Assembly (NCBI GenBank): GCA_947632455.1
Contig: CANRPK010000003.1
Coordinates: forward strand, 2,476-66,475
Direction of reading: 5' to 3'
DNA: 64,000 nt
Source of the DNA: an uncultured Bacilli bacterium
GTDB taxonomy: Bacteria; Bacillota_I; Bacilli_A; RF39; UBA660
Below are positions 26,652 through 52,131 of the stretch, piece by piece. The notes below the pieces were generated by a model. It searched no databases. It saw nothing but the letters and a program-made list of their open reading frames with translations, and was not told the DNA's origin. The first letter of the stretch is position 1. Each line of letters starts with the position of its first letter. Position numbers and translations under genes: made by a program.

Positions 26652-27467
26652 ATGACATTAAACATGATATGGGAAGTCATCACTAAAATCATTGATATAA
26701 GTGTTGTTTGGCTCGTATTTTATTTTATTTTAAAAAATATTAAAAATAATATCAAAATGGTTTTAATCTTTAAAGGCGTAATATTAATATTAATAATTAA
26801 GCTTTTAAGTGATTTATTAAATTTATACACAGTAGGAATAATTCTCCAATATTGTGTCCAATGGGGACCACTTGCAATTATTGTAATATTCCAACCTGAA
26901 ATTAGAAGTGTATTAGAATCTATTGGTAGAACTCAATTATTAGGTCGTCATAAAATATTAACCATAGATGAACGGGAAAAAGTAGTTTATGAAATAATGA
27001 AAGCTATTGAATATTTTAAACGTAATCGTATAGGAGCTCTAATTGTAATTGAAAGAGAAATATCTTTACAAGAATATATTGAACCAGCGACTAAAATATA
27101 TGCTGATTTATCTAGTGATTTATTAGAGACTATTTTCTTTCCTAATGGACCACTTCATGATGGTGGTGTAATTTTACAAGGTGATAGAATAACGGCGGCT
27201 GGAGCAATATTTAAAACTAGTCTAAATGGAAGTATATCTAAAAGATTAGGAACTCGTCATAGAGCAGCCTTAGGAATTGCTGAAGAAAGTGATGCTGTTG
27301 CCTTAGTTGTATCTGAAGAAACCGGTCGTTTAAGTATCGCTTGTGATGGTGATATAAATTATAACTTAACTTTAGATGAATTTAGAATGTTACTAATTGA
27401 TTCTTTAAATCCTAAACCAGAAGTATTCTATGAAGCTGAAAATAAAGAGAGTGATGGTGAAGAATAA
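26652..27467 (+). CDS. cdaA: Diadenylate cyclase CdaA
   Basis: Three N-terminal TM helices and DAC motifs GALIVIERE, PLHDGGVIL, GTRHRAALG. Confidence 0.9.
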   Translation: MTLNMIWEVITKIIDISVVWLVFYFILKNIKNNIKMVLIFKGVILILIIKLLSDLLNLYTVGIILQYCVQWGPLAIIVIFQPEIRSVLESIGRTQLLGRHKILTIDEREKVVYEIMKAIEYFKRNRIGALIVIEREISLQEYIEPATKIYADLSSDLLETIFFPNGPLHDGGVILQGDRITAAGAIFKTSLNGSISKRLGTRHRAALGIAEESDAVALVVSEETGRLSIACDGDINYNLTLDEFRMLLIDSLNPKPEVFYEAENKESDGEE

Positions 27468-28837
27468 TGAAAACTATTTTAAATTTATTTAAAAAAATTA
27501 TATTAGGTATTTATCGAATTATAGATAAATTATTAATTACTCCTATAAGTAGATTAATATTTAATATCAAAGAATATTTAAAAGCTCATAATATTAAATT
27601 AGATTATATAATTAATCGTCCTAACTTTATAATTTATGTATCTTTAATTTTAGCAGTAGTGGTCTTTCTTTTAATTGATTCTCGTGTAATTGCTTTAGTA
27701 GAATCTGAAGCTGAAGTCTTAACTAATGTTCCTGTTAAAGCCAATTATAATGAAGAAGCTTATGTAGTCGAAGGTATTCCTAAAACTGTTGATATAGTCT
27801 TAATTGGTCGTAAAAGTGATATATATTTAGCTAAGCAATTAGGAACAAATATGGTTATATTAGATTTATCTGATTATACAGCCCGTTCTTCAGCTTATAA
27901 AGTTTATTTATCATATACTAAATCAATAGATTCCATAAATTATAAATTAGATCCATCATATGTTTCTGTAACTATTAAAGATAAAGTTAGTGTAACTAAA
28001 AGTGTAAATTATGATTTAGTAAATGTTGATTACTTAAATGAAAGATTAAGTGTTAAAAGTGTTGAATTAGCTAAAAGTGAAGTAGTTGTAAAGGGTAGTG
28101 AAGATTATTTAGATAATATTGCTACAGTTAAAGCTTTAATTGATTTAAAAGATAATAGCTTAAATGATGCTGGAACTTATGATATAAGTAATATTCCTCT
28201 ATTAGCATATGATAGTAAAGGAAGAATTATTGAAGAAGTAGAAATAGTCCCAACCACCATGACAGCTACAGTTACTTTAGATACTTATTCTAAGAGTGTT
28301 CCAATTAACGTTTTAACTACTGGTAATCTTGTTACGGGAAAATCTATTGCCTCAATTCTTATTAACAATAGTAATACTAAATCAGTTAATATATATGGTG
28401 ATGAAGAAACCATAAATGGAATTACAAGTGTTCCAGTAACTATAAATGTCGCTGGTCAAGGTGGAAATGGAACAAGAACATATAATGTAACTATCAATAA
28501 ACCAAATGGTGTAAGAAGTGTAAGCGAAACTAAAGCTACAATTACAGTTACATTTGGTGATGAAAAACAAAAAGAAGTCAATATATCTAATGTCTCTCAA
28601 CAAAACTTAGCTAGTGGCTTAGTTGCTAATATAGTTGGAACTGATAGTGTTAATGTTATTGTTAAAGGTGTTCAATCTGTAATAGATTCTGTAACTGAAA
28701 ATAATATCAATGCTTATATCGATCTTGAAGGCTATTCAGTGGGTGAATATGATGTTGAAGTCAAAATAGATAATAAAGACCCTCGCATAAAATATGTTGT
28801 TTCATCAACAGTAAAGGTTCGTATCTCAAATGATTAA
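27467..28837 (+). CDS. cdaR: CdaA regulator CdaR (YbbR-like repeats)
   Basis: TAATG overlap with cdaA. One TM followed by repeated YbbR-type beta modules. Confidence 0.8.
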   Translation: MKTILNLFKKIILGIYRIIDKLLITPISRLIFNIKEYLKAHNIKLDYIINRPNFIIYVSLILAVVVFLLIDSRVIALVESEAEVLTNVPVKANYNEEAYVVEGIPKTVDIVLIGRKSDIYLAKQLGTNMVILDLSDYTARSSAYKVYLSYTKSIDSINYKLDPSYVSVTIKDKVSVTKSVNYDLVNVDYLNERLSVKSVELAKSEVVVKGSEDYLDNIATVKALIDLKDNSLNDAGTYDISNIPLLAYDSKGRIIEEVEIVPTTMTATVTLDTYSKSVPINVLTTGNLVTGKSIASILINNSNTKSVNIYGDEETINGITSVPVTINVAGQGGNGTRTYNVTINKPNGVRSVSETKATITVTFGDEKQKEVNISNVSQQNLASGLVANIVGTDSVNVIVKGVQSVIDSVTENNINAYIDLEGYSVGEYDVEVKIDNKDPRIKYVVSSTVKVRISND

Positions 28838-28851
28838 CGAACCTTTTTTTT
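28814..28851 (+). terminator. Terminator at the end of cdaR
   Basis: AAGGTTCGT ... ACGAACCTT followed by a T8 run. The stem spans the cdaR stop codon. Confidence 0.6.
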
Positions 28852-29050
28852 ATTCACATATAGTAATTAATTCTCCAACAGAACAATCTAAATATTTGCA
28901 AAACTCTTCAATATATTTAAACGATATCGAAGTAGTATCACCTCTAATAATTCTATTAATATTTCTAGAAGTAATATTCATTCTTTGACATAACCAATAT
29001 TTAGTTTTACCTTTCTTTTTTAATAATTCTTCAATATTTATTTTAATCAT
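28850..29050 (-). CDS. XRE-family HTH regulator (66 aa), divergent from paralog copy 1
   Basis: KTKYWLCQRMNITSRNINRIIRGDTTSISFKYIEEFCKYLDCSVGELI is a Cro/C1-type HTH. Confidence 0.8.
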   Translation of the reverse strand: MIKINIEELLKKKGKTKYWLCQRMNITSRNINRIIRGDTTSISFKYIEEFCKYLDCSVGELITICE

Positions 29051-29104
29051 CTAAAGTCACCTCTACCAATATTTTATAAAATTAAGAAAATATAAATAAG
29101 GTAC

Positions 29105-29133
29105 TTGCATTACCCATATTTTTGATATATAAT
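29105..29133 (+). promoter_or_regulatory. Promoter of paralog copy 1
   Basis: TTGCAT, 17-nt spacer, TATAAT. Confidence 0.6.
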
Positions 29134-29144
29134 GTAAACATAAG

Positions 29145-29158
29145 TTAGAAATTTCTAA
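29145..29158. promoter_or_regulatory. 14-bp perfect palindrome TTAGAAATTTCTAA (candidate operator)
   Basis: Lies just downstream of the -10 element. An identical copy is at 40605-40618. Confidence 0.5.
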
Positions 29159-29182
29159 TAATATTGAGGAAAGGAAAAAAGA

Positions 29183-30667
29183 ATGAAAATAGAAAGGTTA
29201 GAAATAAGTAATAAAAAAGTAAAGATAGCATTTATAGTAGGAATAGTATTAACAGCAATATTATTTATAATGGTAAATTATTTAGTTACTAAAGCAAAGT
29301 ATCGAAATACAGAAAGCCTAGATTTAGTAAAAGGAACAATTACATATAATAAAGCAGATCTAAACATAATCGCGATGTATCAAGAAAGTAGCTATGGTAC
29401 AAATGGCTATAAACAAATAGATGATGTGCCAACAGAAAAATATACATTAAGTAATAAAAGTTATTGTGAAGTAGGCAGTCAAAAAGTAGAAGATGCTCAA
29501 ATTGAATATAGAGAAGGAGCAATATATGTAGGAAATATCAAAAAAAGAGGAACAAAATGTTATATATATTTTGATTTGGATTATAAGGCAGATGATATGT
29601 TAGCAAAATTAGAAACAATAAAACAAAGTAAATATGAAAAAACAGCAATGCCAAATCCAATCACAGGACCATACGATGCGGATGTAGAAAACCCGGAACA
29701 TAAAGAAAAAATATATACAACCGAAGATAACTACGGAACCAGTTATGTATTTAGAGGCAATAATGATGATGTAAATAACTGGGTAACATTTGCTAATCAT
29801 ACATGGAGGATAATCCGAATAAATGGAGATGGAACATTAAGGTTAATATTCCAATGTGCAGAGCCAAATTGTACAGATACAAAGGGACCAACAACCCAAA
29901 TAGGAAAAAGTGCATATAAATTAGCACCGCTTGATGATAATACCTATGTAGGATATTATTATGGCGAAGCGGGTCAAGACACATATGATAAAACTCATAC
30001 TAATGCTCATCCAAGCGATGTAGCAAAAGCTGTTGATAATTGGTATACCGGTACAGGAAATATGACTTCATATACTAAATATTTAAGTGGAGACACTGGA
30101 TTTTGTAATGATCGAGTAGTAGTTACTAAAGTTTGGAATGATTATGAAGGCAATGGAACAGGACAGTCTGCAACAGGATATGGTCCAGCAGCCAGATTAA
30201 TACTTAATGGCGGATGGAGAAAAAGTCAATACCCAACATTAAAGTGTGGGGTTAATATTGGTGGAGTAAATAAAGAAACATATGATAATTTTGATGTAGA
30301 TCCAACAGCATTAAAAAGAGATTTATTTACTACCAAGAACTCAGGCAGAGGTAACGAAATACTTACATATCCAGTAGGACTTATCACAAGTGATGAAGTT
30401 ACTATGGCTGGACTATTCGGAGGAACAGCATTTGCTGATTACTGGTTATATACAAATCAACATTATTGGACAATGTCTCCTAATTGGTATGATGTCAATA
30501 ATAAGGTGGCTGACGTGTTCCCTGTGCATGAGAATGGCAACTTTTACTACTGCGGCGTTGGTAGCGTTCATGGAGTGCGTCCAGTAATTAATCTTAATGC
30601 CGATATCGAATTTAGTGGAGGTACTGGTAAATCCGATAATCCATTTATCGTAAAAACAAGCAATTAA
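29183..30667 (+). CDS. Membrane-anchored paralog family protein, copy 1 (lectin-like C-terminal module)
   Basis: One N-terminal TM helix. Shares NWVTFANHTWRIIRINGDGTLRLIFQC, YVGYYYG, FCNDR, LKCG, LITSDEV, YWTMSP and GVRPVINLNADIEFSGG with 40641, 42526 and 50091. Confidence 0.85.
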   Translation: MKIERLEISNKKVKIAFIVGIVLTAILFIMVNYLVTKAKYRNTESLDLVKGTITYNKADLNIIAMYQESSYGTNGYKQIDDVPTEKYTLSNKSYCEVGSQKVEDAQIEYREGAIYVGNIKKRGTKCYIYFDLDYKADDMLAKLETIKQSKYEKTAMPNPITGPYDADVENPEHKEKIYTTEDNYGTSYVFRGNNDDVNNWVTFANHTWRIIRINGDGTLRLIFQCAEPNCTDTKGPTTQIGKSAYKLAPLDDNTYVGYYYGEAGQDTYDKTHTNAHPSDVAKAVDNWYTGTGNMTSYTKYLSGDTGFCNDRVVVTKVWNDYEGNGTGQSATGYGPAARLILNGGWRKSQYPTLKCGVNIGGVNKETYDNFDVDPTALKRDLFTTKNSGRGNEILTYPVGLITSDEVTMAGLFGGTAFADYWLYTNQHYWTMSPNWYDVNNKVADVFPVHENGNFYYCGVGSVHGVRPVINLNADIEFSGGTGKSDNPFIVKTSN

Positions 30668-30670
30668 AAA

Positions 30671-30708
30671 CTTGTCTATACTGCTTTCTTATTCCAAGTA
30701 TAGACAAG
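30671..30708 (+). other. Conserved post-stop hairpin, copy 1
   Basis: 12-bp stem CTTGTCTATACT/AGTATAGACAAG with 14-nt loop GCTTTCTTATTCCA. No T-run follows. Confidence 0.7.
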
Positions 30709-30721
30709 ATATATTATCAAA

Positions 30722-30747
30722 AGATAGGGTATACCTATCTTTTTTTA
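30722..30747 (+). terminator. Rho-independent terminator of copy 1
   Basis: AGATAGG-GTATA-CCTATCT followed by TTTTTT. Confidence 0.65.
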
Positions 30748-30941
30748 ACAAAAAATAAAAAGCCCTAAGGCTTCTTTTCAAATAAAAAAACATTTAACTT
30801 TTGCTTGAATTAGTAGAATTTGATATTAGTTAAGTAAAGGAAGTATATCAAAGAATGGAAAAGAATCTTCAAACAAATTAAATGTTCGATTGTGTATACT
30901 ACTACAAAAAATACATTTTGTCAAGCAAAATATTAAAAAAA

Positions 30942-40604: not shown

Positions 40605-40618
40605 TTAGAAATTTCTAA
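40605..40618. promoter_or_regulatory. Palindrome TTAGAAATTTCTAA (candidate operator), second copy
   Basis: Identical to 29145-29158 and at the same distance from the -10 element. Confidence 0.5.
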
Positions 40619-40640: not shown

Positions 40641-42110
40641 ATGAAGATAGAAAAAATAGGGGAAACAAATAAATATAAATGGATAATAATAGGCTTTATC
40701 ATTTGTGCCAGTTTATTTGTTATGATAAATTACCTAATAACCAAAGCAAAATACCGAAATACAGAAAGTGTAGATTTAGTAAAAGGAACAATTACCTATA
40801 ATAAAGCAGATCTAAACATAATAGCGATGTATCAAGAAAGCAGTTATGGTACAAATGGGTATAAACAAATAGATGATGTACCAACTGAAAAATATACATT
40901 AAGTAATAAAAGTTATTGTGAAGTAGAAGGACAAAAAGTAGAAGAAGCCCAAATAACATATGAAGAAGGGTATATAAGTGTAAGTAAAATAAATAAAAGA
41001 GGAACAAAATGCTATATCTATTTTGACTTAGATTATACATCAGAAGATATGTTAGCAAAGTTAGAAGAAACAAAACAAAGTACATATGAAAAAACAACAA
41101 TGCCAAATCCAATCACAGGACCATATGATGAGCAAAAAGAAAATCCAGAACATAAAGAGAAACTATATACAACCGAAGATAATTATGGAACCAGTTATGT
41201 ATTTAGAGGAAACAATGAAGATGTAAATAACTGGGTAACATTTGCTAACCATACATGGAGGATAATCCGAATAAATGGAGATGGAACATTAAGAATGATA
41301 TTCCAATGTGCAACTCCAGGATGTACAGATACAGAAGGGTCAATAACCACAATAGGTAATAGTGCATATAAATTAGCCCCATTTGATGATAATGCATATG
41401 TCGGATATTATTACGGCGAAGCAGGACAAGACACATATGATAAAACTCACACCAATGCTTATCCGAGTAAAGTATCAGAAACCATAAAAGAGTGGTATAA
41501 CAAAAATGACAATATGACTAATTATACTAAATATTTAAGTGGAGATACAGGATGGTGTAATGATCGAGTAGTGGTTCAAAATCTTTGGGAAAGTGCTAAA
41601 GGCGATGGATCCAATAAATCCACTACAATTTATGGTCCAGCAAATAGACAAAAATTAAATAATGTTTGGAGAAAAGAACAATATGCAAATTTAAAATGTG
41701 GAACAATTTATGCTAATGATTTAAGTACTTTTTCATATAATGAGAAAGTAATGGAAAGGGATTTATTTACAACAGAAGGATCAATTCAAGGAAATGGAAA
41801 ACTCCCGGTTCCAGCCGCGTTAATCACAAGTGATGAAGCCTTGATGGTTGGAGGCTTTGGAGGAACAGCAAGCACAAATCATTGGCTATACACCAACCAA
41901 AATTATTGGACAATGTCTCCTTTTTGGTACGATGGAAATATGAATTGGGCCGTAATGTTTGCTATAAAAAGTGATGGTAGTGTTTATCATGAAAAAATAG
42001 GAATAACCAATAATGGAGTTCGCCCCGTAATTAATTTAAATGCTGATATAGAATTTAGCGGAGGAGACGGAAAATCATCTAATCCATTTATCGTAAAAAC
42101 AAACATATAA
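40641..42110 (+). CDS. Membrane-anchored paralog family protein, copy 2
   Basis: Same architecture and conserved blocks as copy 1. The 5' ~185 nt are about 94% identical to copy 1. Confidence 0.85.
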   Translation: MKIEKIGETNKYKWIIIGFIICASLFVMINYLITKAKYRNTESVDLVKGTITYNKADLNIIAMYQESSYGTNGYKQIDDVPTEKYTLSNKSYCEVEGQKVEEAQITYEEGYISVSKINKRGTKCYIYFDLDYTSEDMLAKLEETKQSTYEKTTMPNPITGPYDEQKENPEHKEKLYTTEDNYGTSYVFRGNNEDVNNWVTFANHTWRIIRINGDGTLRMIFQCATPGCTDTEGSITTIGNSAYKLAPFDDNAYVGYYYGEAGQDTYDKTHTNAYPSKVSETIKEWYNKNDNMTNYTKYLSGDTGWCNDRVVVQNLWESAKGDGSNKSTTIYGPANRQKLNNVWRKEQYANLKCGTIYANDLSTFSYNEKVMERDLFTTEGSIQGNGKLPVPAALITSDEALMVGGFGGTASTNHWLYTNQNYWTMSPFWYDGNMNWAVMFAIKSDGSVYHEKIGITNNGVRPVINLNADIEFSGGDGKSSNPFIVKTNI

Positions 42111-42114
42111 AAAA

Positions 42115-42152
42115 TTTGACTATACTGCTTTCTTATTCCAAGTATAGTCAAA
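42115..42152 (+). other. Conserved post-stop hairpin, copy 2
   Basis: Stem TTTGACTATACT/AGTATAGTCAAA with the identical loop GCTTTCTTATTCCA. A separate terminator hairpin lies at 42156-42179. Confidence 0.7.
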
Positions 42153-42525: not shown

Positions 42526-44034
42526 ATGAAAATAGAAAGGTTAGATATTGATAGTAAAAGAAATAAGACAATATTTGTAGTAGGATTTATATTAGCAATA
42601 ATATTAGTAATAGTAATAAACTATATAACCAGTCTAGCAAGATATAGGAATACAGAAAGTATAGAACTAGCAAGTGGTAATATAAACTACAATAAGGCAG
42701 ATTTGAATATAATCGCTATGTATCAAGAAAAAGATGATAGTACATCTGAAGAGAAAGAATATATAAATATAAATAAGATACCCACAATAGGATATAAATT
42801 AAGTGAAGATAGTTATTGTGAAATAAATGGAGAGCCAATAGAAGAAGTAGAGATAGAATATAAAAATAGTGCAATATATGTAGGAAATATAACAGAAAAA
42901 GGAACAAAATGTTATATATATTTTGATAGTTTAGTAAAAGAAATGTTAGGTAAATTAGAAACCTCAAAGGGAAGTAAATATACCATAGATGAAATGCCAA
43001 ATCCAATCACAGGACCATATGATGAAAGTACAGAAAATCCTGAAGGAGAAGAAAAATTATATACCAGTCCAGATAATTATGGAACCAGTTATGTCTTTAG
43101 AGGAAATAATGATGACGTAAATAACTGGGTAACTTTTGCTAATCATACATGGAGAATAATCAGAATAAATGGAGATGGAACATTAAGGTTAATATTCCAA
43201 TGTGCAACTGAAAATTGTACTGATGCAATCGGTGAAAATACCCAAATAGGAAAAAGTGCTTATAAATCTAAACCGTTTGATGATAATACCTATGTAGGAT
43301 ATTATTATGGAACAGCACACACAGATGAAAAACCAAGTCCAAGTTATGAAGAAGCACATTCAAACTCTACGATAGCTAAAGCAATAAATAATTGGTACAG
43401 TGGTACAGGAGCAATGACAGATTACACCAATTATTTAGAGGGAAGCACAGGATTTTGTAATGATCGAGTAGTAGTAAAAAATGTTTTGAATACGTTTGAA
43501 GGCGATGGTGCCGCACAAAGTTCAACAGGTTATGCACCAGCCGCCAGATTAATTTCAACTAGCGTACGGAGAACAAAACAATATCCAACATTAAAGTGTG
43601 GAGTTGTAATGCCAGAAATAAGCCCATCAAATGATGTAGGATTTAATAGTTTTGATGAGATAGATACTACCGCATTAAAAAGAGACTTATTCACAGTAGA
43701 AGGTTCAGATAGAGGAAATGCAAAGCTTCCAGTGCCAGTAGGGCTTATCACTAGTGATGAAGTAGCAATGGCTGGAGGCTTTGGAAGAACAGTCTCTACT
43801 GATTACTGGTTATATACAAATCAAGATTATTGGACAATGTCTCCACGAGACTATGATGCTTCGGTTAAGTGGGCTAATGTGTTCGCTGTTCGTGAAGATG
43901 GCACCCTCAACAGTTGGAGCATTAGAGATAGTCGTAGTGGAATGCGTCCAGTCATCAACTTAAAAGCTGATATTGAATTTAGTGGAGGAGCTGGAAAATC
44001 ATCTAATCCATTTATTGTAAATACAAGTAATTAA
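42526..44034 (+). CDS. Membrane-anchored paralog family protein, copy 3
   Basis: Same conserved blocks. Tandem to copy 2. Confidence 0.85.
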   Translation: MKIERLDIDSKRNKTIFVVGFILAIILVIVINYITSLARYRNTESIELASGNINYNKADLNIIAMYQEKDDSTSEEKEYININKIPTIGYKLSEDSYCEINGEPIEEVEIEYKNSAIYVGNITEKGTKCYIYFDSLVKEMLGKLETSKGSKYTIDEMPNPITGPYDESTENPEGEEKLYTSPDNYGTSYVFRGNNDDVNNWVTFANHTWRIIRINGDGTLRLIFQCATENCTDAIGENTQIGKSAYKSKPFDDNTYVGYYYGTAHTDEKPSPSYEEAHSNSTIAKAINNWYSGTGAMTDYTNYLEGSTGFCNDRVVVKNVLNTFEGDGAAQSSTGYAPAARLISTSVRRTKQYPTLKCGVVMPEISPSNDVGFNSFDEIDTTALKRDLFTVEGSDRGNAKLPVPVGLITSDEVAMAGGFGRTVSTDYWLYTNQDYWTMSPRDYDASVKWANVFAVREDGTLNSWSIRDSRSGMRPVINLKADIEFSGGAGKSSNPFIVNTSN

Positions 44035-44079
44035 AAACATGCCTATACTGCTTTCTTATTCCAAGTATGGGCATGTTTT
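44032..44079 (+). other. Conserved post-stop hairpin, copy 3 (also terminator-like)
   Basis: 17-bp stem AAAAACATGCCTATACT/AGTATGGGCATGTTTTT (one G-T pair) with the identical loop GCTTTCTTATTCCA. Confidence 0.7.
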
Positions 44080-44207
44080 TAATATCTAATAAATACTCAT
44101 ATTTAATTATCTAATATATTTATAAAAAGAATAAAATTTATCATTTTTTCTTGATTTTGAAATATATATATGATAGACTTATTAATAGAATAAAAGGTGG
44201 TGTAAGG

Positions 44208-50090: not shown

Positions 50091-52040
50091 ATGACAAAAA
50101 ATCGCATATTAATTGCAATAGTAAGTGTATTGCTTATTGGGGTAGGAATAAGTATGGCATATTTTGCCGCAAAGGTAAGTAGTACAGGTGGAGGAATAAG
50201 TACAGAAGTAACAACCGCTAAAATAGGCGATGTAACAATAGAGATGTATGGAAAATTAGATTTAGATGTTGAAGATATGTATCCAGGACATTCAGATGTA
50301 TCAAGATTAGATGTAAAAGCTACGGGAGATAATAGATTAGTCGCATATAATTTAGTGTGGGCAGGAACAAATAGCCTACAAACAAAAATAGAATATATAG
50401 TATATAGAGTAACAAATACTTTAGAAGTAAGTAGTGCTTGTGAAGTAAAAACAAAAATAATAGAAGAAGGACAAGCCGTATATGAAGAATGTAAAATAAA
50501 TAATATAGATAAATTAGGAAGTCCAGTAGGAAGTGGAACAATAGAGACTGGCGAAGAAATATTAGTAGAGGATGAATTTATAAATGCTAGTCCAACCGGA
50601 GAAGAAATCCATTATTATGTGGTATTAACATATCCAAATAAAGAAGAAGATCAAGATTATGATAGAACAGGGGAATTTAGTGGCGAGATAAAAATAACCA
50701 ATAGTGATGCTAAACCAGATATAACAATCTTAGCCGCATATGTAGAAGATGAAAAGACAGGTAAGTTTAATGAAGCAAAGAAGATACCTGAAGGAGAATA
50801 TAAACTAAATAATAGAAGTACATGTACAAATGGAGCAACCCCAATATGGGATACAAATAATAAAGGATTATTAGTTGCAAATTTAACAGAAACAGGAACT
50901 AGTTGTGTTTTATATTTTGAAAAGAAATATGCATCAGATGATATGTTAGCAAAACTAGAGGCAGCAAGACAAGCAAAATTCAATATCGAAAAGATGCCAA
51001 ATCCCCTCACCGGACCATATAGTGGCGATGCTAGTTCTGATCAACCAATAGCGAATGATAAATTATATACAAGTCCAGATAATTATGGAAGAAGTTATGT
51101 ATTTAGAGGAAACAATTATGATGTTCACAACTGGGTAACATTCGCAGGACATACATGGAGAATAATCAGAATAAATGGAGATGGCACATTAAGATTAATA
51201 TATCAATGTGCTACCCCAGGATGTACAACAACTGAAGGAGAAGGAACTCACATAGGAACAAGTATATATAAGTCAGAAGCAATAGATGATAATACCTATG
51301 TAGGATATTATTATGGAGAACCAGGACAAGAAACATATGATGCCACTCATACAAATGCTCATCAAAGTACTATAGCTAAATATATTTCAGATTGGTATAG
51401 TGGAACAGGAGCAATGACAAATTATACTAAATATTTAAGTGGAGATACAGGATGGTGTAATGACCGAACAGCAGTTAAAAATTTTTTGAATGGATATGAA
51501 GGTGATGGTACGGGTAAAACTTTAACAGGATATGCGCTATCAACAAGACTAATTGCAAAAGGCGGAGCCTGGAGATTAAAACAATATCCGACCTTAAAAT
51601 GTGGAGCGGTAATGCCAGAAGAAAATCCAACAGAAGAAGAAGGAGCAAAATATTTTAGCAATTTTGAAGTAGACAATACTGCTTTAAAAAGAGATTTATA
51701 TACAACAATAGGTTCTAGTAATGGAAATAAAGTATTAGATGTTCCAGCAGCCTTAGTTACAACTGATGAAGTAGCTATGGCAGGAGGCTTTGGAGGTACA
51801 GCTTCTACAAATTATTGGCTATATACAAATCAATATTATTGGGCAATGTCTTCTTGGGGTTATTTTTCAGAAGGCTTTGCTCGTGCGTGGGTTACACAGG
51901 AGGGTGGTGCCTTATGGGGTGCCTGGGAAGTACGTCGTAGTTACGGTGTCCGCCCAGTAATAAATTTAAATGCTGATGTAACATTTAGTGGAGGAACAGG
52001 TACATCAAGTAATCCATTTGTAGTAAATACAAGTAATTAA
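50091..52040 (+). CDS. Paralog family protein, copy 4, with an extra TasA/camelysin-like N-terminal domain
   Basis: N-terminus ILIAIVSVLLIGVGISMAYFAAKVSS and MYPGHSDVSRLDVKATG (TasA-like), followed by the shared core from DDMLAKLEAARQ to GVRPVINLNADVTFSGG. Confidence 0.85.
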   Translation: MTKNRILIAIVSVLLIGVGISMAYFAAKVSSTGGGISTEVTTAKIGDVTIEMYGKLDLDVEDMYPGHSDVSRLDVKATGDNRLVAYNLVWAGTNSLQTKIEYIVYRVTNTLEVSSACEVKTKIIEEGQAVYEECKINNIDKLGSPVGSGTIETGEEILVEDEFINASPTGEEIHYYVVLTYPNKEEDQDYDRTGEFSGEIKITNSDAKPDITILAAYVEDEKTGKFNEAKKIPEGEYKLNNRSTCTNGATPIWDTNNKGLLVANLTETGTSCVLYFEKKYASDDMLAKLEAARQAKFNIEKMPNPLTGPYSGDASSDQPIANDKLYTSPDNYGRSYVFRGNNYDVHNWVTFAGHTWRIIRINGDGTLRLIYQCATPGCTTTEGEGTHIGTSIYKSEAIDDNTYVGYYYGEPGQETYDATHTNAHQSTIAKYISDWYSGTGAMTNYTKYLSGDTGWCNDRTAVKNFLNGYEGDGTGKTLTGYALSTRLIAKGGAWRLKQYPTLKCGAVMPEENPTEEEGAKYFSNFEVDNTALKRDLYTTIGSSNGNKVLDVPAALVTTDEVAMAGGFGGTASTNYWLYTNQYYWAMSSWGYFSEGFARAWVTQEGGALWGAWEVRRSYGVRPVINLNADVTFSGGTGTSSNPFVVNTSN

Positions 52041-52043
52041 ATA

Positions 52044-52076
52044 CATGCCTATAATGCTTATTCATTTATAGGCATG
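52044..52076 (+). other. Conserved post-stop hairpin, copy 4
   Basis: Stem CATGCCTATAA/TTATAGGCATG with the related loop TGCTTATTCAT. Confidence 0.6.
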
Positions 52077-52105: not shown

Positions 52106-52131
52106 AGAATGAAGATTTCTTCATTCTTTTT
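52106..52131 (+). terminator. Rho-independent terminator of copy 4
   Basis: AGAATGAAGA/TCTTCATTCT followed by TTTT. Confidence 0.6.

Follow-up and report, generated by a model that had tools for sequence, protein, structure and literature searches.

The window, the whole 64,000-nt stretch of DNA analysed here, holds four paralogous genes whose stop codons are each followed by a stem-loop, and the question raised by the locus is what these stem-loops do. An earlier note, made from the sequence alone, had set them apart from the terminators and had proposed two connections, one with the hairpins of DGR targets and one with the ribosome-binding sites (RBS) of the same genes. The paralogs, their stem-loops and the terminators beyond them, the latter two as seen in RNA folds, are as follows:

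29183..30667, plus strand: paralog copy 1, 494 aa, with an N-terminal membrane anchor, a C-terminal lectin-like domain and a DGR-type variable region ending 84 nt before the stop
30671..30708, plus strand: post-stop stem-loop of copy 1, with a 12-bp stem at 30671-30682/30697-30708 (CTTGTCTATACT/AGTATAGACAAG) and a 14-nt loop at 30683-30696 (GCTTTCTTATTCCA); covariance-model match of 57.7 bits (G000:C3:33146-33183)
30719..30750, plus strand: separate intrinsic terminator of copy 1, AAGATAGGGTATACCTATCTT followed by a T-run
40641..42110, plus strand: paralog copy 2, 489 aa, with a variable region of background (AT-rich) composition; the hairpin is kept, with its own compensated stem
42115..42152, plus strand: post-stop stem-loop of copy 2, with a stem at 42115-42126/42141-42152 (TTTGACTATACT/AGTATAGTCAAA) that differs from the copy 1 stem by two compensatory pair changes, and the loop GCTTTCTTATTCCA; 55.6 bits
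42156..42185, plus strand: separate intrinsic terminator of copy 2, AATAGGCTCAATAAGCCTATT followed by a T-run
42526..44034, plus strand: paralog copy 3, 502 aa, a paralog of copy 1
44030..44083, plus strand: post-stop stem-loop of copy 3, with a core stem at 44038-44049/44064-44075 that includes one U.G pair, the loop GCTTTCTTATTCCA, an AAAAA/TTTTT extension and a U-run (UUUUU) directly 3′; 59.1 bits
50091..52040, plus strand: paralog copy 4, 649 aa, with a longer N-terminus
52044..52076, plus strand: post-stop stem-loop of copy 4, with a copy-3-type stem (CATGCCTATAA/TTATAGGCATG) and a shorter, related loop, TGCTTATTCAT, that contains CTTATTC; 40.6 bits
52077..52135, plus strand: second hairpin after copy 4 (AGGCC...GGCCT) and a canonical terminator (52106-52127, then a T-run)

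All four stem-loops lie where the earlier note had placed them, with the sequences that it gave. Each starts 2–6 nt beyond the stop codon, and their RNA folds had z-scores of −6.0 to −7.6, with none of 200 shuffles folding equally well. The further observations that copies 1–3 share one identical 14-nt loop on stems differing by compensatory changes, and that copy 4 has a related loop, were borne out in the sequence; likewise, the fold contained a separate canonical terminator after copies 1, 2, and 4. In copy 3, a U-run comes right after the hairpin, which probably doubles as the terminator there. Sequence similarity among the four window loci breaks off at the 3′ edge of the hairpin, and the hairpin of copy 4 is identical in two other strains.

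The proteins encoded by the window paralogs (52–70% identity to copy 1) belong to what looks like a large family of fast-varying, lectin-like surface proteins, in which the variable segment appears to be written by a DGR. In the source assembly (G000; 1.54 Mb in 126 contigs, 30% G+C), 36 of 38 paralogs have 84 nt between the end of the variable region and the stop. The genes of the family have their own promoters and regulators and are dispersed among housekeeping genes, and XRE regulator genes adjoin many of the paralogs. All 24 other genomes of the genus that were sampled for the protein contained it, with 14–70 matches each; genome contigs searched with the paralog alignment gave no match, and metagenome contigs searched with copy 1 gave a single distant relative and nothing more.

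At the 5′ ends of these genes, a perfect palindrome (TTAGAAATTTCTAA or TTAGGAATTTCTAA) was observed at positions 29145–29158 and 40605–40618 of the window and in most paralog leaders genome-wide, just 3′ of a consensus TTGACT-17-TATAAT promoter and beside XRE-type regulator genes; it is probably an operator. A comparison of the copy 4 locus with two other strains (L170/L171) found the 5′ half of the gene ∼99% identical, dense block differences at 51200–51970 (the last ∼750 nt to the end of the variable region), and near identity in the last 84 coding nucleotides, the hairpin, and the downstream region. This pattern of sequence differences indicates a putative mosaic replacement of the C-terminal domain.

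To assess the distribution of the hairpin, a covariance model was built from 22 distinct hairpins and searched against the genome and its relatives, a check that the earlier note had suggested. In G000, it returned 35 strong matches (E ≤ 6e-8), all directly after paralog stop codons and none after an unrelated gene. The hairpin was thus present at 35 of the 38 paralog 3′ ends of the genome, so that the claim of a hairpin after every paralog stands for the four copies of the window and for most, rather than all, of the paralogs genome-wide. Over 300 further matches were obtained from 34 of the 43 other genomes of the genus, very unevenly: ten of the 44 genus genomes, G000 included, had 11–38 matches each, and the others had 0–6. 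In six other genera of the same family there was no match, and ∼100 genomes of the class yielded a single, chance-level match. The hairpin is therefore peculiar to this gene family and confined to the genus. It is missing from many paralogs of the other species in the genus and is consequently not essential to the gene family.

The arrangement around the hairpin is regular. The gap from the stop codon is 2–8 nt in G000 and 0–14 nt in most copies overall, and the usual order on the 3′ side is an AU-rich linker followed by a separate terminator, in keeping with the proposal that the element belongs to the 3′UTR and is distinct from the canonical terminator. In an Rfam search of the window, only tRNAs reached the gathering threshold; the best sub-threshold scores around the hairpin were 24.6 bits for STnc370 (threshold 54) and 23.6 bits for LhrC (threshold 110). 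REP/BIME-type repeats and integron attC sites are likewise multi-copy imperfect palindromes found just after genes, and attC sites also combine a conserved outer stem with a variable center. However, the hairpin is confined to one gene family, with 0 of 35 copies elsewhere, unlike REP/BIME repeats, and the earlier reading of it as something other than a generic REP-like repeat held up accordingly. The attC core sites R″ (RYYYAAC) and R′ (GTTRRRY) are absent, and the ends are instead CTTGCC...GGCAAG throughout the genus.

The stem-loop structure is under selection. In the alignment of the 22 hairpins, 95.4% of the cells were paired, with compensatory change on both sides in nine of the 12 pairs; 0 of 500 shuffles reached any of the measures, and slid registers were only 22–48% paired. 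Among the 11 outer pairs of 54 distinct hairpins from >30 genomes, we counted 553 Watson-Crick pairs, 33 G·U, 4 A·C, and 4 others, although the hairpins share ancestry and the independent events are therefore fewer than these counts. When a transition arises in duplex DNA, either strand is equally likely to be the one with G·T, its partner then having A·C, and the neutral ratio of G·U to A·C is thus 1:1. The observed bias of 33:4 therefore shows that selection acts on the fold of a single strand of sense (mRNA) polarity. Strand asymmetry and position are the two grounds on which we infer that the molecule which folds is RNA and not single-stranded DNA of the sense strand, and a hairpin in single-stranded DNA would give an equal asymmetry. 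A U-run lies directly 3′ of the hairpin in copy 3 of the window, on contigs C11 and C21 of G000, and at a locus of another strain (L169), implying that the hairpin of these copies forms in nascent RNA.

The same pair counts bear on whether the inverted repeat could instead be an operator, recognized in duplex DNA by a dimeric regulator such as one of the neighboring XRE proteins. Conservation of the outer half-sites, CTTGCC/GGCAAG, extends across the genus, XRE genes flank many paralogs, and some loops contain YTCTAW, like a half-site of the promoter palindrome, possibly by coincidence. However, the two arms change together and complementarily among copies inside one genome, and the mismatches favor G·T over A·C by 33 to 4, which is a signature of base pairing and not of a protein reading two half-sites; furthermore, the variable 11–19 bp spacer is unlike that of such operators. 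We regard an operator as extremely unlikely.

Stems across the set are 11–12 bp long, and whole hairpins have a G+C content of 26–53%; the outer stem is the conserved part, and the inner pairs co-vary. The loops measure 11–19 nt, start with GC(U), end with YA, and are 76% pyrimidine (52% T, 24% C, 17% A, and 6% G). Two loop classes were distinguished in G000: class A, with the identical 14-nt loop GCTTTCTTATTCCA in 28 copies, and class B, with GTCTTCTTCTTATTCTAA in nine copies; the heptamer CTTATTC is common to both classes and to the loop of copy 4. The loop is fixed within a genome and differs between clades or species groups. The CTTATTC type occurs in G000, G002, G055, and G016, TTATCTCTA in G017, CTCTAACTTTT in G023, G006, and G053, and TTTTCCTTTA in about eight more distant species, and the CTTATTC core is kept across species whose proteins are only 40–50% identical.

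Sequence constraint is stronger on the loop than on the stem. When G000 was searched for the class A loop with one or two mismatches, no such variant lay within a hairpin. Among 25 copies picked by their exact loop, diversity was 0.19 in the stem arms, compared with 0.38 at the third positions of codons in the final 84 coding nucleotides; the zero diversity of the loop in these copies is circular, since they were chosen by it, and the non-circular evidence is the mismatch search.

Two DNA- and RNA-level alternatives have to be weighed against this pattern. The first treats the hairpin as a recombination element, in which gene conversion would be anchored or initiated by a site prone to hairpin formation together with 26 nt of identity (TATACT + loop + AGTATA). 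Similarity among paralogs does stop at the hairpin, and a hybrid hairpin on contig C31 of G000, whose 5′ arm reads CATGCC and whose 3′ arm reads GGCAAG, resembles and suggests a possible crossover inside the loop. Yet the blocks that diverge between strains stop where the variable region itself ends on its 3′ side, 84 nt upstream, and not at the hairpin; a homology anchor also needs neither a stem nor compensatory changes, and a G·U bias on the sense strand is not expected of a duplex-DNA homology block. Such an element is very unlikely in our judgment.

The second alternative is that two intrinsic terminators lie in tandem and the hairpin is simply the first and leaky one, or else a barrier to 3′ exonucleases, with the loop kept by shared descent and gene conversion. 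A U/A-rich tract often lies 3′ of the hairpin (UUUAUUAUUUUU, UUAUAUUUUUAUUAC), the hairpin is the sole terminator-like structure in several copies, and the strain comparison indicates that gene conversion among paralogs is frequent. Like Rho-independent terminators, the element is a stable hairpin near the gene end, with a U-run in some copies. In contrast to them, it has a large loop of conserved sequence, 11–19 nt being atypical for terminators, and is mostly followed by an AU-rich tract, with the canonical terminator 8–20 nt further on. The loop is more conserved than both the stem and the neighboring codons, whereas conversion would homogenize the stems too, and its pyrimidine richness and avoidance of G are kept genus-wide even where the loop sequence has changed. 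This explanation is considered unlikely.

The reading that we prefer, and to which we give roughly an even chance, is that the hairpin is a new cis-acting RNA element of the 3′UTR, specific to this gene family, whose loop would be read by a putative genome-specific partner and which would affect 3′-end formation or the stability of the message. The element would be transcribed with the paralog gene and would fold into the 11–12-bp stem, thereby presenting an 11–19-nt, pyrimidine-rich loop almost without G; it lies after the stop codon and before the true intrinsic terminator, and its location upstream of the terminator is directly visible in the sequence. In the minority of copies with a U-run right after it, the hairpin may double as the terminator. 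Its most likely role would be that of a docking site, in which a putative trans-acting factor reads the loop sequence and the stem only displays the loop; that factor may then set the 3′-end processing or the stability, and hence the expression, of all messages of the family together. Both the partner and the effect on stability or processing are postulated here.

Several candidates for such a mechanism were tried and rejected. In a search of the assembly for sites complementary to the loop with ≤2 mismatches, none was found elsewhere, and the best match, on C18, fell within a coding frame and was discarded as a trans RNA partner. Genes for Hfq and CsrA were not found in G000. An antisense terminator, an internal promoter, and an in-frame read-through extension were dismissed by eye, as the spacings and flanks are not conserved.

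A more specific RNA-level mechanism had been put forward in the earlier note, which saw partial complementarity between the loop and the purine-rich RBS of copies 1–3. According to this explanation, the loop would mimic an anti-Shine-Dalgarno sequence and repress translation, pairing either with the leader of its own message, thus circularizing it through its 5′ and 3′ UTRs, or, as a small RNA derived from the 3′UTR, with other leaders of the family. In Staphylococcus aureus, an element in the 3′UTR of icaR pairs with the RBS of its own mRNA. The hairpin shares with icaR and with Listeria LhrC (RF00616) a pyrimidine-rich, single-stranded loop on a hairpin upstream of a terminator, and the leaders of the family in G000 are purine-rich, with purine runs of 9–20 nt compared with a genome mean of 6.8. 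The layout of CU-rich-loop hairpin, AU-rich linker, and terminator is also like that of small RNAs such as LhrC, although the LhrC score of the element, 23.6 bits against a threshold of 110, is below threshold and not significant.

Pairing between loops and leaders was examined with RNAduplex, using shuffled loops, the leaders of other species, 905 gene starts, and different leader types within genomes. The class A loop paired with leader A (GGAAAGGAAAG) at 10 of 11 positions (−11.4 kcal/mol), in the top 1.9% of the 905 other gene starts, and with leader B over a perfect 9 bp (GGAAUAAGA/UCUUAUUCC; −13.5 kcal/mol), in the top 0.3%. Against shuffled loops, however, only class A of G000 was nominally significant (p ∼0.03–0.04), and class B and 11 pairs from other species were not. 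Cognate pairs were no better than non-cognate ones among 13 loop/leader pairs from 10 species (P = 0.80), and the length of the leader purine run did not track the hairpin (mean 9.8 with and 8.7 without): G017 has 31 hairpins and ordinary leaders, whereas G007 has no hairpin and purine runs of 19–21. Within each of G017, G021, and G002, moreover, a single loop type occurs with several unrelated 5′UTR types. The complementarity is therefore marginal and limited to G000; in contrast to icaR and LhrC, there is no co-variation of loop and leader across species or within genomes, and the hairpin is not tied to purine-rich leaders. A specific loop/leader interaction was rejected on the shuffled-loop, cognate versus non-cognate, and leader-type comparisons, and the anti-Shine-Dalgarno explanation is accordingly held to be very unlikely, as a recombination element also is.

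The remaining alternative is that the hairpin is the target-site hairpin of a DGR. The variable regions of the window do have machinery in the genome, in the form of an MSL-Avd-RT cassette and arrays of template repeats on other contigs:

G000:C29:4464-6325 (locus L002 545-2406), outside the window: DGR cassette with a MutS-domain-I-like ORF (MSL, 140 aa), an Avd-like ORF (117 aa), and a reverse transcriptase (RT, 372 aa; IGxxxSQ motif present as IGNMSSQ)
C20:22560-26118: array of 12 template units, running to the contig end
C35:220-1570: array of template units
C9:30400-31300: array of template units
C37:1700-2230: array of template units
C10: array of template units
C38:60-330: array of template units

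The MSL-Avd-RT order on C29 is the ‘architecture D’ of Wu et al., and ∼1.2 kb upstream of the cassette there are two hairpin-bearing paralogs, separated from it by one unrelated gene. A template repeat adjoining this RT was rejected: short-word BLAST found none beside it, and the templates are in arrays on other contigs. G000 contains 26 template-repeat units, on C6, C9, C10, C20, C35, C37, and C38, of which 25 are stand-alone ∼300-bp units in arrays, found by their junction motif, and one more follows the paralog on C6. Each array unit consists of a promoter-like box, GGTTAATCT, a GC-rich ∼110-nt homolog of the variable region ending in GTGCGTCCA, and a conserved 3′ handle, and the template units have no hairpin. 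Read from the sequence, this amounts to a many-template, many-target DGR layout. For most variable regions of G000, the mismatches to every template involve all four bases; the adenine bias is clearest between the C6 (33604) paralog and C20+23310, where 12 mismatches are at adenines and six are not, and this paralog is one of the three in G000 without the hairpin. Across the genus, an RT ortholog was found in 36 of the 43 other genomes, 73–82% identical where intact and pseudogenized in several species, and template units in 15 of the 43. Three high-G+C contigs of the assembly (C36, C42, and C90) carry other reverse transcriptases and phage-like genes and look like contamination of the bin by another organism.

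As a non-canonical target site, the hairpin would form in sense-strand DNA 3′ of the variable region, mark the paralogs as recipients, and promote the integration of cDNA. The paralogs are indeed DGR-type targets, with the RT cassette adjoining two hairpin-bearing members and 26 template units in the genome; the paralogs carry the hairpin and the template units do not; and the site just past the stop is the first non-coding position 3′ of the variable region. At the hairpin-bearing copy 4 locus, the variable region has been rewritten between strains. The target hairpin of mtd in the Bordetella phage BPP-1 similarly lies beyond the 3′ end of the variable region, near or past the stop, and is absent from the template repeats, and its stem is constrained in structure and its loop in sequence, a pattern of free stem sequence and fixed loop sequence that the hairpins here match (PMC3240598).

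The details nevertheless differ. Known DGR target hairpins have a GC-rich 7–10-bp stem and a 4-nt GRNA loop on the sense strand and lie 4–34 bp after the variable region (Guo et al. 2011, PMC3240598), and enlarging the BPP-1 loop by 2 nt abolished function (PMC3240598). Here, the stem is AT-rich and 12 bp long (11–12 bp across the set), the loop is 11–19 nt, pyrimidine-rich, and 6% G, and the distance from the variable region is ∼87–92 nt, so that the hairpin departs from the known one in stem, loop, and distance alike.

The comparison of genomes also counts against the hairpin being required by the DGR. In G043, the RT is intact and there are 18 template units and 68 matches to the paralogs, yet no hairpin match was obtained, an absence confirmed on the 3′ ends of six paralogs by eye and of 20 more scanned with the model; G048, G056, G005, and G018 likewise have an intact RT and no hairpin match. 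Conversely, G016, in which no RT or template unit was detected, has 11 hairpins with compensatory differences among them, and hairpins persist in G012, G049, and G009 although their RT genes have become pseudogenes. In a set of 112 paralogs drawn from 13 genomes, GC-rich ‘written’ variable regions occurred at similar rates with the hairpin (41 of 67) and without it (22 of 45). The best adenine-biased template/variable pair of G000 lacks the hairpin, as described above, and copy 2 of the window, whose variable region has background composition, has a hairpin with two private compensatory changes. Judged from these sequence comparisons, the presence of the hairpin is decoupled from the RT across genomes and does not depend on the DGR, the link to which is only contextual. 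The earlier suggestion of a DGR-target hairpin is thus not upheld, and we consider a non-canonical target-site role an unlikely explanation. A pairing of the hairpin or its loop with the handle of the template units was also rejected, as inspection by eye revealed nothing consistent across units.

Several 3′ structures near templates were observed in passing. Downstream of the C6 paralog (minus strand, from 32069, ∼450 nt), there is a different and very stable 3′ structure, GGTGAG...CTCACC around two hairpins (−37.6 kcal/mol), and the template unit belonging to this paralog lies ∼230 nt beyond it; the same element (…TTCAAGGAGTGT…) also occurs after a paralog sub-family in G013 and G016. At two loci of the sister species G043 (L060 and L085), adenine-rich template units with runs of AAC codons directly follow the paralog genes, and the adjacent variable regions are AT-rich and unrelated to the template.

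Returning to the preferred reading, that of a cis-acting RNA element of the 3′UTR, the hairpin has good support as a candidate new family of structured RNA: it covaries strongly, matches nothing in Rfam, and numbers over 300 instances across 35 genomes. It is tied exclusively to a very large, variable family of lectin-like surface proteins in small-genome, uncultured gut Bacilli. Should the loop be read by a dedicated partner, it would show post-transcriptional control of such a repertoire; should the hairpin act in DGR homing instead, the accepted definition of a DGR target site would widen. A bolder proposal, which we offer tentatively and think unlikely, is that the loop is a genome-specific address tag, with all 15–40 hairpin-bearing messages of the family in a cell exposing the same pyrimidine loop, which would co-evolve with one trans-acting partner, or else that the hairpin is a long-range, large-loop DGR target hairpin serving a many-template, many-target chromosomal DGR. 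For an address tag, candidates for the partner would include a protein, a short purine-rich RNA, and 3′UTR fragments of the expressed copy acting on the other copies; a surface-protein repertoire diversified by the DGR would then be controlled post-transcriptionally as a whole family, for instance through mutual exclusion.

The possibility that hairpins mark both ends of a mobile XRE-paralog cassette was rejected, because inspection of the left boundary of these cassettes revealed no hairpin. A contig from another strain (L169; ENA ERZ27249167), syntenic with positions 27467–30800 of the window, contains a different mosaic paralog after cdaR and a 66-aa XRE gene. This paralog combines a copy-2-like N-terminus and a different variable region with the hairpin of copy 1, which is followed directly by a T-run, and next to it is a 150-aa double-HTH gene in place of the ftsW-like gene of the window, showing that the slot occupied by copy 1 has been rearranged between strains.
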